This document shows, in pieces, positions 29,066 to 64,000 of a DNA stretch of 64,000 bases. The first letter of the stretch is position 1; each line of letters begins with the position of its first letter. This DNA is from Candidatus Heimdallarchaeum aukensis (GTDB lineage: Archaea; Asgardarchaeota; Heimdallarchaeia; Heimdallarchaeales; Heimdallarchaeaceae): NCBI GenBank assembly GCA_021513695.1, contig CP084166.1:2272001-2336000 (forward strand), written 5' to 3'. The position numbers and the translations under genes are program-made. Under the pieces are notes generated by a model that saw nothing but the letters and a program-made list of their open reading frames with translations, did not search any database and was not told where the DNA came from.

Positions 29066-29632
29066 ATGAGAAAAGATGCCTCAGGAAAGCAACACTTTAA
29101 GATAGTGTTTGTTGGACCTAGTTTAGCTGGAAAAACAACTTTACTTAGAAGACTCCATTCTGATGTCACAGGAATAAAAAAAGGTGGATTAAACAGTATA
29201 GAAGATCCTTCAGGAAGAACAATTTACTTTGATTTCTCACCTTTTATGGCGACATCAAATGTCATTTTGGATATTTACACAGTGGCTGGTCAAAAAAGGC
29301 ATAGACACCAAAGGGCGTTAGTTTTGAAGGGTGTTGACGGTCTCTTGTTTGTTGCAGATTCTTCAAGAGCGATGTTGGCCGATAATGTCGAATCAGCAGA
29401 AGAATTGAAAAAAGAACTTGGAGACAAATTAAACAATGAGATTCCACTAGTTATAGTTCTAAATAAACGTGATTTGCCAGATGCAATGGATAAACGAGAG
29501 TTAATCGATGCTTTAAATCTTGGAACAAATTTACCAGTTTACGAAACAATCGCCACAGAAGGTATAGGTGTTAAACGCGCTTTTCAGTCCCTAGCTAGAG
29601 AAGTTTTATTAAAACAAGTTTATAACATGTAG
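29066..29632 (+). CDS. Small Ras-superfamily GTPase, MglA/Arf-like
   Basis: G1 GPSLAGKTT, G3 TVAGQ (MglA-type), G4 LNKRDL. 188 aa. 71 bp downstream of the roadblock gene. Confidence 0.75.
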   Translation: MRKDASGKQHFKIVFVGPSLAGKTTLLRRLHSDVTGIKKGGLNSIEDPSGRTIYFDFSPFMATSNVILDIYTVAGQKRHRHQRALVLKGVDGLLFVADSSRAMLADNVESAEELKKELGDKLNNEIPLVIVLNKRDLPDAMDKRELIDALNLGTNLPVYETIATEGIGVKRAFQSLAREVLLKQVYNM

Positions 29633-57847: not shown

Positions 57848-58444
57848 CTATCTAATGTATATCTCTCTAAATTTCAAAACCTTTTCTTCACTTTGGATAG
57901 CTAATCTTGCAGCATGAGAAAAAAGTTTTTCAACATTTTCAGATGATAATGCAGATGTTTCTATATAATCAAAATTATTTTCTTTTGCATATTCTTCTGC
58001 TTTTTCTCTGTCTACAGCTCTTGCATTTTTTAGATCACTCTTATTTCCACATAAAATAATTGGAATTTCTGAACATTTTTTCTTTATTTCACTAACCCAA
58101 AAGGATACATCATCAAATGTTGACGTTTTAGTAATATCATAGACTACGATAGCAACTTTAGCTCCTAGAAAATATTTTTGTCTAACAAATCCAAAAATTT
58201 CTTGAGCTCCTGTATCCCATAAACTAATTCTAACATTAACATCATCGGTGAGTATATTTTTAGACAAATTTTCATTTAATTCGTCCTTTGTTAAGGAAAG
58301 ACTTTTCGTTAACCAACTCACACCCATTGTTGGGATATAAGAATATGAGAAAGTGTTCATAGCATATCTTCTTGCCAATGATGTTTTTCCTACAAAAGCT
58401 GAACCAATTGTTATAATTTTATACAAATGTCGTTCTATCATTTT
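57848..58444 (-). CDS. Rab/Ras-like small GTPase
   Basis: G1 GSAFVGKTS, canonical G3 WDTAGQE, G4 GNKSDL, G5 ETSAL. Start taken at the internal Met (MIERHLYKI), which overlaps the stop of the upstream longin-like gene by 4 nt (ATGA). Confidence 0.75.
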   Translation of the reverse strand, partial: KMIERHLYKIITIGSAFVGKTSLARRYAMNTFSYSYIPTMGVSWLTKSLSLTKDELNENLSKNILTDDVNVRISLWDTGAQEIFGFVRQKYFLGAKVAIVVYDITKTSTFDDVSFWVSEIKKKCSEIPIILCGNKSDLKNARAVDREKAEEYAKENNFDYIETSALSSENVEKLFSHAARLAIQSEEKVLKFREIYIR

Positions 58445-59292
58445 TATCTCCAAAATATTTCTATTAGTTTTCTTTCTATGTTGATACTGCTTAAACGCCT
58501 CCAATCATCGAGAATCAAAGGCTTTGTATTCGTATTGATTAATTCTCTAAACTGTTCTGGTTCAAAATACTTACTAGTGATATCAACAAATTCTGAAATG
58601 AAATTAAGGAATGTCTCCTTTATTTGGCTATAATCTTCAATTTCTGTTATTTCTGTTGAGTTTACTTCATCTCTTATAAAGAACCCTTCTTTGTCAAAGA
58701 AAAATAACTCGTCAATTTTTTTGTAATCATTTATTAATTTATTAACATCATTTCTTAGTAACTGATTAATTTTTTTCCTTTTCGATTGATCTTCCACAAC
58801 TTTTTGTATTCCTGAACATACTGAATTTATTATATTCTCAAATATTTCTAATAAATTTCTGAACTCAATATCTTTGATGTGATTAGATATAATAGCGTTC
58901 ACTTTGAAAACTTCGGAAATCACCATAGATGGCGATAAGGGTTTTTTTACTTGTTTAATTTCATCAAGGAAATTTTTAGCAGTTTCTTTATCATAGATGT
59001 CAAAAGAGTATAGAAAGAGATTCATTAAAAAGAATAATTGAGAATACGCCATTCCTTCTTTTTGCTCTTGGGAGATTAGTACAAATATGAAATCATACTT
59101 CTTTTCAACTAAAACAATTGTTTTCTTAAAAATTATTTCTCTTAATGGTCCTAATTCTCTTTGTTCTCCCATCTTTATGAATTTTAATAGTTCCGCAAAT
59201 TGGTCAGGTTTAAGAATTAAATTTTCACTATTAGGCGTGTCTGTAAAGATAGTATCGTAGTTATTTTTGTTGAGTATGTAAAAATTAACCAA
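58444..59292 (-). CDS. Longin/roadblock-like domain protein (partner of the Rab-like GTPase)
   Basis: N-terminal YILNKNNYDTIFTD…IVLVEKKYDFIFVLISQEQKEG… fits the longin fold. Remainder helical. Confidence 0.45.
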   Translation of the reverse strand: MVNFYILNKNNYDTIFTDTPNSENLILKPDQFAELLKFIKMGEQRELGPLREIIFKKTIVLVEKKYDFIFVLISQEQKEGMAYSQLFFLMNLFLYSFDIYDKETAKNFLDEIKQVKKPLSPSMVISEVFKVNAIISNHIKDIEFRNLLEIFENIINSVCSGIQKVVEDQSKRKKINQLLRNDVNKLINDYKKIDELFFFDKEGFFIRDEVNSTEITEIEDYSQIKETFLNFISEFVDITSKYFEPEQFRELINTNTKPLILDDWRRLSSINIERKLIEIFWR

Positions 59293-59419
59293 TTAGTACA
59301 CCTTTCTATAATTACTTTTAAATAAATTTAAACTTATTCCTTCTTTAGATTCTGCGTTAACTTTGCCAGTTTCTATTTTTCTTCTATAAATTTTAAAAAG
59401 TATAAAAAAAGATAGAAAC

Positions 59420-61612
<2,193 letters not shown>

Positions 61613-61780
61613 TTATTTCCTCTGATGAAATTCATTTATTATTCCTTGATTCAAAACCTTAATTGACCTTTATTAAGGTTATTTTTTGACAGCATTTTAT
61701 TAACAAATGGGAAATTAGTATTTATATTATATTTTATAAAGAACAAAGAAAAAAGAAACAAAGAAAAAGAAAATGTACTT

Positions 61781-63499
61781 TTAGCAACCCGGAGTGAAGT
61801 AAGGCTTAAGTTCTCCAATATGAGAATCTTCTTCGAGAGTTGCTATCTGATAAATTTTATACCCTCCAGTTAGATTTCTTGGATCAAAACCATGTTGCTT
61901 TAGAATTCGGTATGCGAGATAAGAAGTGAATCCAGTCACACAATGTAGATATACTGGCTTATTTTTTGGAATCTCATCTAGCCTTTCTCTTAATTGACCA
62001 ATAGGTATGTTTATCGCACCTGGAATACAACCTTCAGCATGTAATTCTGGTCCTCTTACGTCAATAATTGTCGCCCCTTCTTCTTTTAATTTCTGTGCTT
62101 CATTCCAATGCCATATCTTCACTTCTCCCCTCATTACGTTAGAAGCAACAAAACCAGCCATATTTACACAATCTCTGGCACAACCAAATTGTGGAGCATA
62201 GCACAATTCAAGATTTTCTAAATCATATACTGTCCCCTTAAAGTTTATAACTGTTGCAATGACATCTATCCTTTTTTCTGTTCCTGGCCCACCTACTGCT
62301 TGTGCTCCTAATATTCTGCCATTTTTAGAGTCAAAAATCAGTTTCATTGATATTTCTTGGGCATCAGGGTAGTAACTTGCATGATTTTGGGGATGAACAT
62401 AGATTTTCTCATAGTTAGTAATTCCTAATGATTTGAGTTGTTTCTCGTTTAATCCAGTTTGAGCAACAGTTTTGTCAAAGACTTTAAGAACAGCCGTACC
62501 TATTGAGCCTTTGTAAGTTGTATCTCTTCCAGCAAGATTGTCAGCAGCTATTCTCCCTTCTCTGTTAGCTGGACCAGCAAGAGGAACAACAGTCGGCTTT
62601 TCAGTAATGAAATTTTTAATCTGAACAGCATCACCTACAGCATATATATCAGGGTCAGAGGTTTGCATGTGTTCGTCAACTATTATATATCCTCGTTCAG
62701 TTAGTTCGAGACCACAATCTTTAGCTAAATGTGTGTCTGGTCTAATCCCTATACTCAAAATGACAAGATCTGTTCCAATTTTCCTTCCGCTTTTAGTAAT
62801 AACTTTGTACTTTCCTTCTCCATCTGTAGACTTCTCAATGCCTACAACCCCATCTCCTAAAATAAGTTTGACCCTATTGAGTACAAGTTCATTATGGATA
62901 AATTGTGCCATCTCTCTGTCTAATGTAGGTAAAACTTGGTCTAAAAGTTCAATTACTTTTACACGAATACCTCTTCGACTAAGATTTTCGACCATTTCTA
63001 ATCCTATATACCCTCCTCCTATTACTGTTGCTGTAACAGGGTTGTTCTTCTCAATAAATTCATATATTTTTTCTGTATCTGGAATATTACGGAGAGAAAA
63101 AATAGGTATATCATCCATTCCTCTGAAAGGAGGACGAATTGGCTCTGCACCAGGTGCTAAAACAAGCTTGTCATAAGAAAGTTCATACTCTTTTCCCACT
63201 TCTCTGTCAATCACTTTAACTATTTTCCTTTCTCGATCGATTGAAATAGCCTCATTCAAAACTCTGACATCAATATTGAAAAACTGTTTAAATTTTTCAG
63301 GTGTCATTAAAACTAGTTTTTCGCGGTCTTGTATCACTTTTCCAATATAATAAGGAAGACCACAGTTTGCAAAAGAAACATATGGTCCTCGTTCTAGTAT
63401 TATTATTTCCGCAAATTCATCTAATCGCCGATATCTAGCTGCTGTGCTTGCGCCACCAGCAACACCACCTATTATTATTATTCTCTTTTTCAATTTCAT
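61781..63499 (-). CDS. CoA-disulfide reductase with C-terminal rhodanese domain (CoADR-RHD)
   Basis: FAD GGVAGGAS, redox Cys SFANCGLPYYIG, NADH GGGYIGLE, C-terminal rhodanese CVTG loop. Confidence 0.75.
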   Translation of the reverse strand: MKLKKRIIIIGGVAGGASTAARYRRLDEFAEIIILERGPYVSFANCGLPYYIGKVIQDREKLVLMTPEKFKQFFNIDVRVLNEAISIDRERKIVKVIDREVGKEYELSYDKLVLAPGAEPIRPPFRGMDDIPIFSLRNIPDTEKIYEFIEKNNPVTATVIGGGYIGLEMVENLSRRGIRVKVIELLDQVLPTLDREMAQFIHNELVLNRVKLILGDGVVGIEKSTDGEGKYKVITKSGRKIGTDLVILSIGIRPDTHLAKDCGLELTERGYIIVDEHMQTSDPDIYAVGDAVQIKNFITEKPTVVPLAGPANREGRIAADNLAGRDTTYKGSIGTAVLKVFDKTVAQTGLNEKQLKSLGITNYEKIYVHPQNHASYYPDAQEISMKLIFDSKNGRILGAQAVGGPGTEKRIDVIATVINFKGTVYDLENLELCYAPQFGCARDCVNMAGFVASNVMRGEVKIWHWNEAQKLKEEGATIIDVRGPELHAEGCIPGAINIPIGQLRERLDEIPKNKPVYLHCVTGFTSYLAYRILKQHGFDPRNLTGGYKIYQIATLEEDSHIGELKPYFTPGC

Positions 63500-63664
63500 C
63501 CCTTAAAAGTTATTTAGTAGAGACTCCTAAATAGAAATATAAAATTAAAGGTATAACTATATTATATCTAATACTAAAAAATATCCAGCAAACTAATGTT
63601 TTTTACATTTTTAGTTAATAGAATTTTGGAAAAATATTAACATATAAAAAAAGAGAAAGTGCAT

Positions 63665-64000
63665 TCACTCTATTTCTTCTAATTCTTCTAACAAATAGCG
63701 AGTACTAGTTTGTTTCATTCGTGAATCTTGTTCTTTTTCTCTTTCACTAATAATATCTCTTTCTATTCGGTCTAAGGCAATAGCAAACGCTCCAAATAAT
63801 CCATAACCCTCTGAGCGAGAGACATAAGTTTTTCCTTTATTTGTTGTTATTCTTAATCTAATCTGATACAAACTGTATCCTCTAAATTTCTTCTTTGGAA
63901 TAGATTTAATATGGATATAGAAATGTCCTGCATTCCCAATCATCAAAGAATATTTATCAATGAACTCTGAAGATAAATCAAAAAGTTGCTTTAAATCTTC
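63665..64000 (-). CDS. Ribosome hibernation factor (HPF/RaiA S30AE-family)-like protein, 5'-partial (frame open to window end)
   Basis: SEGYGLFGAFAIALDRIERDI resembles the HPF C-terminal helix (Y.AID.a.dklerQ). Frame stays open beyond 63946 to the window edge. Confidence 0.4.
   Translation of the reverse strand, partial: EDLKQLFDLSSEFIDKYSLMIGNAGHFYIHIKSIPKKKFRGYSLYQIRLRITTNKGKTYVSRSEGYGLFGAFAIALDRIERDIISEREKEQDSRMKQTSTRYLLEELEEIE

Follow-up and report, generated by a model that had tools for sequence, protein, structure and literature searches.

Protein X, a 'hypothetical protein' with a predicted longin fold, and a Rab-like small GTPase are encoded by a strictly conserved gene pair found within a single family of Asgard archaea, the Heimdallarchaeaceae, and we put at somewhat better than even (a probability of roughly 0.55) the reading that X is a direct partner or regulator of the GTPase, which it would physically bind. 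The pair was identified in a 64,000-nucleotide stretch of DNA (the window), in which X is 100% identical to H. aukensis K9W45_10475 and the GTPase is 100% identical to a Candidatus Heimdallarchaeum aukensis entry, identifying the source as an Asgard archaeon. In 20 of 20 GTDB species genomes, and at every other locus retrieved, the next gene after X on the same strand is the GTPase, and at no locus examined did X or its GTPase clade occur alone. Small GTPases number in the dozens in Asgard genomes, which also carry many roadblock and longin proteins, and the matching of regulators to GTPases is rarely clear. In the cultured Asgard archaeon MK-D1 operons are not the norm, which makes GTPases hard to match to GEFs or GAPs (Tran et al. 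2024, PMC10933270). A strict, near-abutting pair with apparently shared translation signals, present in all 20 species genomes, therefore offers a specific X-GTPase combination for testing. The pair adds a further lineage-restricted case to a class of systems known already from Asgard archaea, and its function is putative.

The 282-aa open reading frame listed in a preliminary description of this DNA is present and begins with TTG, and this start codon aligns with those of the X orthologues, several of which use ATG (Table 1). The GTPase lies directly downstream as described, although the 198 aa assigned to it are reached only by counting the stop codon, the protein itself having 197. An ATGA overlap of stop and start codons had also been proposed, but the junction reads ...TGG AGA TAA aa ATG..., with the X stop codon at 58446-58444, the GTPase ATG at 58441-58439 and a spacer of 2 nt. 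An overlap arises only with a TTG start at 58504, which gives the longest open reading frame and was rejected because all orthologues begin at the aligned ATG with GGAG upstream. Junctions of the form ..TGG AG(A/G) TAA (a/g)a(a/g)a ATG.. are conserved, and the spacer is 2-5 nt in all 20 species genomes when alternative upstream in-frame starts chosen automatically are discounted. Because the GGAG lies inside the last codons of X, translation of the two genes appears to be coupled, and the invariant pairing, narrow spacing and embedded GGAG(G) ribosome-binding site together argue for a partnership. Both genes are under purifying selection (dN/dS against H. endolithica of 0.09 for X and 0.05 for the GTPase), with X evolving faster (about 30% identity across the family versus about 57% for the GTPase), as is usual for regulators, a pattern that also favours the partner reading.

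Table 1. Features of the X-GTPase locus and the adjacent CDC48 gene, in window coordinates
Feature	Position	Strand	Details	Basis
CDC48/p97-type double-ring AAA+ ATPase	59420..61609	-	729 aa; CDC48_N 1.4e-31, CDC48_2 1e-16, two AAA domains 1.6e-95	Pfam
Promoter-like A/T box TTTAAATTTATTTAAAAG	59315..59332	-	23-40 nt upstream of X start	conservation
Shine-Dalgarno-like GGTG	59299..59302	-	6 nt upstream of X TTG start	read from sequence
Protein X	58444..59292	-	282 aa, TTG start; public annotation 'hypothetical protein'	ORF list
X longin domain	58951..59292	-	residues 1-114	AF2 model
X interdomain linker	58909..58950	-	residues 115-128; low confidence, pLDDT <50 for 116-128; holds invariant S122	
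X helical domain	58447..58908	-	residues 129-282; pLDDT 80-93	AF2 model
Shine-Dalgarno-like GGAG	58448..58451	-	within last two X codons (W281-R282), 6 nt upstream of GTPase ATG	read from sequence
Rab-like small GTPase	57848..58441	-	197 aa; ATG at 58441, stop at 57848	Pfam Ras 1.1e-45
GTPase clade-specific insertion	58247..58291	-	about 15 aa, T51-T65 TKDELNENLSKNILT; beta2-beta3 interswitch hairpin	
GTPase G3/switch II	58199..58216	-	D76-T-G-A-Q-E81; tgg gat aca gga gct caa gaa = WDTGAQE	
GTPase C-terminal tail	57851..57880	-	VLKFREIYIR; clade consensus LKFRKEYIL	alignment, tails of 20 genomes

The structure of X was predicted using AlphaFold2 (AF2) with an 11-sequence alignment (pLDDT 79.7), a model built on only five near-identical sequences having been discarded (pLDDT 48.9). 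Longin domains are alpha-beta-alpha sandwiches of about 110-140 aa with the order b1-b2-a1-b3-b4-b5-a2-a3. Residues 1-114 of the model fit this order, with b1 at 2-8, b2 at 14-17, a1 at 29-44, b3 at 52-55, b4 at 58-65, b5 at 68-75, a2 at 79-96 and a3 at 102-114, and with a pLDDT of 68-92 by 10-residue block. The preliminary description had called the frame longin/roadblock-like and had considered that 58444-59292 might yield neither fold; the model gives an N-terminal longin fold confined to the first 114 of the 282 residues, while the roadblock half of the label is not supported by the topology. In the AF2 model this domain shows significant structural similarity to solved longin domains, the best matches being HPS4, Mon1, Inturned and Ccz1, with a small margin of these tri-longin GEF subunits over the longins of adaptor complexes. 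HPS4, Mon1, Inturned and Ccz1 are all subunits of Rab exchange factors. The C-terminal domain is modelled as two long helices (131-165 and 169-196), a beta hairpin (197-206) and four or five more helices. Across 29 sequences H138, N146, E149, N153, W264, R266 and W281 of this domain are invariant and R145, N156, K225, R249 and E263 nearly so, and most of the invariant polar residues of X sit here and not in the longin domain. The active part of X may therefore work without longin precedent, which weighs against the partner reading.

No Pfam model matches X above threshold; the highest longin score is 14.8 bits to PF19036 (Fuz_longin_1) against a cutoff of 26.1 bits, and other longin or roadblock Pfam models gave no match. 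Fuz_longin_1 is, however, the only Pfam model to recur, below threshold, in the X family (16 of 29 members; best member E 1.8e-4), and as the sole recurrent match it is consistent with X being a longin partner of the GTPase. Profiles of full-length X and of its N-terminal part retrieved no longin protein from PDB sequences, only an interferon and an OHCU decarboxylase at E >0.01. That every sequence-level link to longins falls below the curated threshold, and that no solved longin is reached by the X profile, counts against X being a longin regulator. The helical domain gave no PDB sequence match and no consistent Pfam match; scanning eight diverse C-terminal domains gave a separate Pfam family for each (AF0941-like, CRAL_TRIO, Reticulon and others) at E >0.005, which was treated as noise. 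A viral fold library returned low-TM matches only, to a giant-virus 'sensor histidine kinase' (TM 0.21-0.24) and to longin-SNAREs. Among 1.84 billion representative proteins, exhaustive HMMER searching placed X in about 8 clusters at 50% identity and linked it to no other family. A word-seeded search with the single sequence found only sequences at least 83% identical, and the corresponding profile search added at least two further diverse members.

Several other architectures were considered for X and set aside. A DHp/histidine-kinase-like reading of the helical hairpin carrying H138 lacked any HisKA or HATPase signal and did not fit the motif spacing. X does not have the SNARE motif plus membrane anchor that follow the longin domain in longin-SNAREs, nor the alpha/beta DENN core that follows it in folliculin/DENN proteins, and an NPRL2-like architecture was likewise rejected. 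A search of a literature library found no paper on the X family or on Asgard proteins tied to tri-longin GEFs.

The GTPase belongs to a Rab-like clade specific to the Heimdallarchaeaceae, as judged from sequence comparison. It scores 155.6 bits against the Pfam Ras model (cutoff 21.6 bits), so that the Pfam searches put forward in the preliminary description succeeded for the GTPase, whereas no longin or roadblock model rose above threshold for X. Its best 60 PDB matches are all Rabs, led by a Thorarchaeota Rab (7ezb, 2.4e-33) and including Rab11, Rab35, Rab6, Rab5 and Ypt1, and in comparisons with reference sequences it scores 102 bits to Rab7A versus 19 bits to MglA. The clustering with bacterial MglA that had been raised as a possible outcome was thus not observed. 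A second GTPase, MglA-like, is encoded elsewhere in the window at 29066-29632. The orthogroup, whose members are named 'Rab family GTPase' at NCBI, consists of 195-aa proteins that are 56-71% identical and occur only in the Heimdallarchaeaceae; the next-best matches are eukaryotic Rabs at 42% identity or less.

Four of the nucleotide-binding boxes of the GTPase are intact, namely the G1 P-loop GSAFVGKT (aa 13-20), G2 T38 and, as had been noted earlier, G4 NKSD (133-136) and G5 ETSA (161-164). These boxes, the retained catalytic Gln and the Rab-like character of the protein agree with its being the target of a Rab regulator. The WDTAGQE switch II motif attributed to it is, on the other hand, a misreading: the DxxG glycine (Ras G60) is replaced by Ala and the preceding residue (Ras A59) by Gly, and the canonical DxxGQ is consequently absent from the window GTPase. 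DTGAQE is limited to Heimdallarchaeum and its closest relatives (the window and loci L007, P0008 and P0009), whereas all other orthologues carry DTGGQE, in which DTGGQ satisfies DxxG. In H-Ras the corresponding G60A substitution locks the protein in inactive state 1 and leaves hydrolysis impaired (PMC4867591). These natural variants, DTGGQE in most of the family and DTGAQE in Heimdallarchaeum, are of side-interest for GTPase mechanism. In alignments every orthologue has the interswitch insertion (consensus LTPEQLNENLTKE...), which eukaryotic Rabs, a Lokiarchaeota GTPase and Thor-Rab lack, and the aligned tails from 20 genomes contain no cysteine and hence no prenylation site. Compared by eye with the reference motifs, RabF5 (VVYDIT) is good, RabF4 (YFLGA vs YYRGA), RabF1 (MGVSW vs IGVDF) and RabF2 (RISLW vs KLQIW) are partial and RabF3 is poor. 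The description of the two genes as a eukaryote-like GTPase-plus-regulator pair of the Asgard kind fits a Rab-like GTPase, a predicted longin fold and a pairing kept in every species genome.

Longin platforms in Mon1-Ccz1, BLOC-3, Fuzzy-Inturned, TRAPP and DENN proteins are dimeric and dock onto the switch regions of small GTPases. We propose that the two genes form a two-gene operon specific to the Heimdallarchaeaceae, probably with its own promoter, in which the longin domain of X would be of the type that forms such GTPase-docking platforms in eukaryotic Rab exchange factors and the second gene would encode its cognate Rab-like GTPase. By analogy with those platforms X may itself dimerise, and the beta2-beta3 insertion and conserved C-terminal tail of the GTPase would probably serve binding specificity and non-prenyl targeting. 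X would bind the GTPase and set its nucleotide state, most plausibly as a GEF, although exchange activity specifically is a tentative assignment.

That X is a GAP for the adjacent GTPase and not an exchange factor we regard as unlikely. Precedents exist in the roadblock protein MglB, which acts on MglA, and in FLCN-FNIP and GATOR1 (Nprl2), GAPs that have longin domains and contribute an arginine finger. However, the nearest structural neighbours of X are GEF subunits and not GAPs, its topology is longin and not that of the MglB roadblock, and its GTPase is not MglA-like. In addition, the candidate finger residues of X belong to its helical domain; in the known longin GAPs the fingers, FLCN R164 and Nprl2 R78, sit in the longin domain.

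Upstream of X, the A/T box recurs as T(T/A)AAA..ATTTTTAAG at a comparable distance in 19 aligned sequences (the window plus 18 related loci) and is a candidate archaeal BRE/TATA element, a proposal based on conservation in a genome of 32% GC. Related loci share a Shine-Dalgarno-like A(A/G)GGT(T)G at 8-12 nt before the start codon of X, and the presence of both signals ahead of X supports the partner reading. In 23 of 23 related loci the gene immediately upstream of X is that of CDC48. The gap between the two genes is 120-245 nt. The preliminary description was right about this adjacency but had placed the pair just upstream of CDC48; in the direction of transcription it lies downstream, 127 nt away in the window. 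At the locus of one relative (L003), a Robl_LC7 plus GTPase pair is found near CDC48.

It is rather improbable that X is an effector or adaptor that recognises the GTPase in its GTP-bound form, in the way that SR-alpha binds SR-beta-GTP through its SRX longin domain, with the helical domain of X coupling the switch to another machine, possibly the CDC48 unfoldase. The oligo-T runs after the CDC48 stop codon, the length of the gap and the conserved promoter-like box indicate that CDC48 is probably a separate transcription unit from the pair. CDC48 is also about 85% identical across the family, which is housekeeping-like, gene order is broadly conserved in the family in any case, and Pfam detected no Cdc48-binding motif or domain (UBX, SHP, VIM or PUB) in X. 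Any functional link between the pair and CDC48 is conjectural.

Conserved adjacency in a largely collinear region of a fairly narrow family is weaker evidence than it would be across phyla. Even so, simple inheritance of gene order, with X a lineage-specific longin protein acting on something besides the downstream GTPase, is hardly probable: although all carriers belong to one family, neighbouring genes (CBS protein, FrhB, F420 ligase and TPR protein) are also largely collinear and MK-D1 GTPase genes generally lie outside operons with roadblock or longin genes (PMC10933270), the 2-5 nt spacing and embedded ribosome-binding site persist in all 20 genomes while X itself has drifted to about 30% identity, X and the GTPase clade are not seen apart at any locus examined, and in Heimdallarchaeum, where both flanks are rearranged relative to other genomes, the breakpoints fall just outside an intact CDC48-X-GTPase trio. 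The survival of this trio in rearranged surroundings is further support for X being a partner of the GTPase.

If the resemblance of X to Mon1, Ccz1, HPS4 and Inturned reflects ancestry, the gene pair bears on the way in which the Rab activation machinery originated ahead of eukaryotes. In a more speculative and improbable form of this idea, X would be a single-longin survivor related to the ancestor of the tri-longin Rab GEFs (Mon1-Ccz1, BLOC-3 and CPLANE). It would act as a GEF, in homodimeric form, on a Rab-like GTPase of its own, and its novel helical domain, bearing a conserved polar stripe (H138/R145/N146/E149/N153/N156), would contribute a new catalytic or targeting function that is possibly coupled to CDC48. 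Were this so, the pair would be the first genomically assigned cognate Rab/GEF pair in archaea and would place the root of the GEF family in archaea.

Compared with the tri-longin Rab GEFs (Mon1-Ccz1, BLOC-3 HPS1-HPS4 and CPLANE Fuzzy-Inturned), whose first longin is PF19036, the model to which X matches below threshold, X has one longin domain in place of three consecutive ones, followed by helices and the single beta hairpin. Those GEFs are heterodimers of two paralogues, whereas X is encoded by one gene per locus and HMMER detected no paralogous family or partner among the 1.84 billion representatives, where a very divergent partner could escape. Mon1-Ccz1 uses a switch I lysine in Ypt7 that is absent from the window GTPase, which reads SYIPTMG. 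The bacterial MglA-MglB system combines a Ras-like GTPase with a roadblock GAP; here the GTPase is Rab-like and X starts b1-b2-a1, as a longin and not as a roadblock. Similar in kind are the Asgard modules in which eukaryote-signature platform domains stand beside Rab-like GTPases, among them a LAMTOR1-like/Rab-like GTPase/DENN operon (Liu et al., bioRxiv 10.1101/2020.10.19.343400), and for which roadblock, longin and Thor-Rab structures are available (Tran et al. 2024, PMC10933270). From these modules X differs in joining a longin to a 155-aa helical domain, without DENN or roadblock, and in its restriction to the Heimdallarchaeaceae, and the GTPase clade differs in its own beta2-beta3 insertion and G3 variant; the prenylation cysteine is likewise absent from other Asgard Rabs. 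Set against eukaryotic Rabs (Rab11/Rab25, Rab5, Rab35 and Ypt1/Ypt31), the GTPase departs in DTGAQE versus DTAGQE, the interswitch insertion of about 15 aa, the lack of a C-terminal Cys prenylation motif and only partly recognisable RabF1-F4, but is 34-42% identical over the whole G domain and shares with them G1, G2, G4, G5, the catalytic Gln and the RabF5-like YDIT motif.

The genes for CDC48, a 282-aa protein (protein X) and a Rab-like GTPase lie consecutively on the minus strand. The products of the latter two were each 100% identical to database entries of the Asgard archaeon Candidatus Heimdallarchaeum aukensis, where X is annotated as a hypothetical protein. The ATGA stop/start overlap given in the preliminary description is absent; the junction reads TGG AGA TAA aa ATG, with the X stop codon at 58446-58444, the GTPase start at 58441 and a 2-nt spacer between TAA and ATG. 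X was followed on the same strand by a GTPase orthologue in all 20 species genomes and at every further locus retrieved, with a spacer of 2-5 nt throughout, and a GGAG(G) just upstream of the GTPase ATG is formed by the conserved terminal Trp-Arg codons of X. CDC48 was found directly upstream of X at 23 of 23 loci, and the same order was seen in L027, a locus retrieved later. The CDC48-X gap spans 120-245 nt across loci, opens with oligo-T runs in the window, and contains a conserved A/T box and, preceding the X start, a Shine-Dalgarno-like A(A/G)GGT(T)G conserved across 19 loci. From this conservation we infer a separate putative promoter for a bicistronic X-GTPase message.

Features of the window, with coordinates and strand
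Feature	Position	Strand	Basis
CDC48-type AAA+ ATPase, 729 aa	59420-61609	-	ORF reading
Conserved A/T box, T(T/A)AAA..ATTTTTAAG	59315-59332	-	shared in the CDC48-X gap across 19 loci
X, 282 aa, TTG start	58444-59292	-	ORF reading
Small GTPase, 197 aa, ATG start	57848-58441	-	ORF reading
G3 box (GTPase aa 76-81)	58199-58216		
TPR protein, 243 aa	57064-57795	+	
ORF, 326 aa	54141-55121	+	by-eye motif reading
CoA-disulfide-reductase-like gene	61781-63499		
ORF, 93 aa	63665-63946	-	
Second small GTPase, 188 aa	29066-29632	+	
Neighbour of second GTPase, 125 aa	28547-28924	-	

The GTPase was assigned to the Ras family by Pfam (1.1e-45; Arf model just 3.6e-8), and its best 60 matches among solved structures were all Rabs, led by the Thorarchaeota Rab 7ezb (2.4e-33) and followed by Rab11, Rab35, Ypt31, Rab6, Rab5 and Ypt1. 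Bit scores against reference sequences, which serve as a lead only, were 102 for Rab7A, 101 for Ran, 86 for RhoA, 71 for H-Ras, 26 for Arf1 and 19 for MglA. The earlier placement as Ras/Rab-like is thereby upheld, and by sequence the GTPase is not MglA-like. Its P-loop reads GSAFVGKT, and its NKSD and ETSA boxes agree with that description; switch II, given there as WDTAGQE, is W-D-T-G-A-Q-E (codons gga gct for G-A). A search of 5.8 billion proteins returned a tight orthogroup of ~30 clusters (56-71% identity, mostly 195 aa), in which all members with a source name were Heimdallarchaeaceae or Heimdallarchaeota; beyond it, the nearest matches were eukaryotic Rab11, Rab25 and Rab5, at no more than 42% identity. 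Alignment revealed three clade hallmarks: a ~15-residue insertion (LTPEQLNENLTKE...) in the β2-β3 interswitch hairpin, a conserved C-terminal tail, LKFRKEYIL, without cysteine, and a G3 motif of DTGGQE. The G3 box varies naturally inside one orthogroup, mostly DTGGQE and DTGAQE in the Heimdallarchaeum lineage; the latter, in which the DxxG glycine becomes alanine, is confined to Heimdallarchaeum and its nearest relatives (the window, related locus L007 and orthologues P0008 and P0009). DTGGQE corresponds to Ras A59G and DTGAQE to A59G+G60A, changes that altered switch II dynamics in mutant studies. H-Ras G60A favours the inactive state 1 and has drastically reduced intrinsic GTPase activity (PMC4867591).

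A Pfam/NCBIfam scan of X gave no model at threshold. The best relevant Pfam match was Fuz_longin_1 (PF19036), a model of longin domain 1 in FUZ, MON1 and HPS1, at residues 5-96 (E 0.033; 14.8 bits against a 26.1-bit cutoff). The same model was by far the commonest Pfam match when family members were scanned individually (16/29, best E 1.8e-4), with no other longin or roadblock model matching among the 29. At the level of fold, the longin reading is supported: in an AlphaFold2 model (pLDDT 79.7, 11-sequence alignment), residues 1-114 follow the longin order β1-β2-α1-β3-β4-β5-α2-α3. Structural comparison is suggestive of a special closeness to tri-longin Rab GEFs, by a small margin, although X has one longin domain and those proteins three. 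A low-confidence linker (residues 116-128) leads to a helical domain (129-282) of two long helices, one β hairpin and further helices, which carries most of the invariant polar residues. His138, Asn146, Glu149 and Asn153 are invariant and line one face of helix 131-165; Trp264, Arg266 and Trp281 are also invariant, and Arg145, Asn156, Lys225, Arg249 and Glu263 nearly so.

X is a rare protein. Word-seeded searching gave six proteins with identities of at least 83%, and exhaustive HMMER searching across 1.84 billion representatives gave eight clusters, with nothing further. More divergent members (~30% identity) came from the gene upstream of GTPase orthologues and from species genomes in GTDB; the latter numbered 20, AB_125 among them, and all were Heimdallarchaeota. 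Family-wide identity was ~85% for CDC48, ~57% for the GTPase and ~30% for X, and dN/dS against the related H. endolithica was 0.01, 0.05 and 0.09, respectively. X is a genuine gene under purifying selection.

Longin and roadblock domains form dimeric small-GTPase platforms, mostly GEFs and sometimes GAPs (PMC10933270). On the evidence of a strictly kept operon, a longin fold and Rab-GEF subunits as nearest structural neighbours, the best-supported model is that X would bind the co-encoded GTPase and set its nucleotide state, most likely as a GEF. The interswitch insertion is a plausible predicted specificity determinant, and the basic-hydrophobic tail could plausibly replace a prenyl anchor. 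X might instead be a GAP, to which the conserved Arg and Asn residues of its helical domain could point, or an effector or adaptor, possibly linked to CDC48. Merely inherited adjacency is a further alternative. Much of the wider neighbourhood is likewise collinear, so synteny carries less weight; in Heimdallarchaeum, however, both flanks of the trio are rearranged with CDC48-X-GTPase intact.

In the two Heimdallarchaeum genomes, the TPR/F420 ligase/FrhB block is inverted and abuts the GTPase (window 57848-64000 compared with loci L001, L003, L005 and L008-L027), and the CBS-domain gene now lies beyond the CoA-disulfide-reductase-like gene. The 93-aa ORF matches the C-terminal part of relatives' 388-393-aa CBS-domain proteins (55-92% identity), which suggests the 3' part of a longer gene. 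The TPR protein, convergent with the GTPase, had only TPR matches in Pfam; its orthologue at L003, a locus from a related Heimdallarchaeaceae genome, has a weak precomputed match to SNAP (soluble NSF attachment protein), and a SNAP-like protein beside a CDC48/NSF-type ATPase is a curious, unsupported idea. Also at L003 (1-686, ~2 kb upstream of CDC48), a Robl_LC7 gene (99 aa) and a GTPase gene of Arf/Ras type sit side by side in the same orientation, a further roadblock-GTPase pair near the trio. The 326-aa ORF carries C-5 cytosine DNA-methyltransferase-like motifs (FSGAGG, PPCEPF), as read by eye, and has a conserved counterpart beside FrhB in H. endolithica. The second small GTPase belongs to the Arf family by Pfam (4.8e-18) and by sequence is MglA-like (39% identity, 119 bits to Myxococcus MglA); its divergently transcribed 125-aa neighbour gave no Pfam match and could encode an undetected roadblock/MglB-type partner.

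Both roadblock/longin proteins and GTPases of the Rab-like kind count among the established eukaryotic signature proteins of Asgard archaea, and the X-GTPase pair is a lineage-restricted addition to this class. A search of one literature library turned up no paper on the X family and none connecting Asgard proteins with longins of the Mon1/Ccz1 type. A conserved LAMTOR1-like/Rab-like/DENN operon has already been described (bioRxiv 10.1101/2020.10.19.343400). In MK-D1, GTPases generally lie outside operons with roadblock/longin genes, making regulators hard to match to GTPases (Tran et al., PMC10933270). The present pair is distinguished by a conserved helical domain without an assigned fold, the GTPase insertion and natural G3 variants, and offers an unusually clean cognate pairing.
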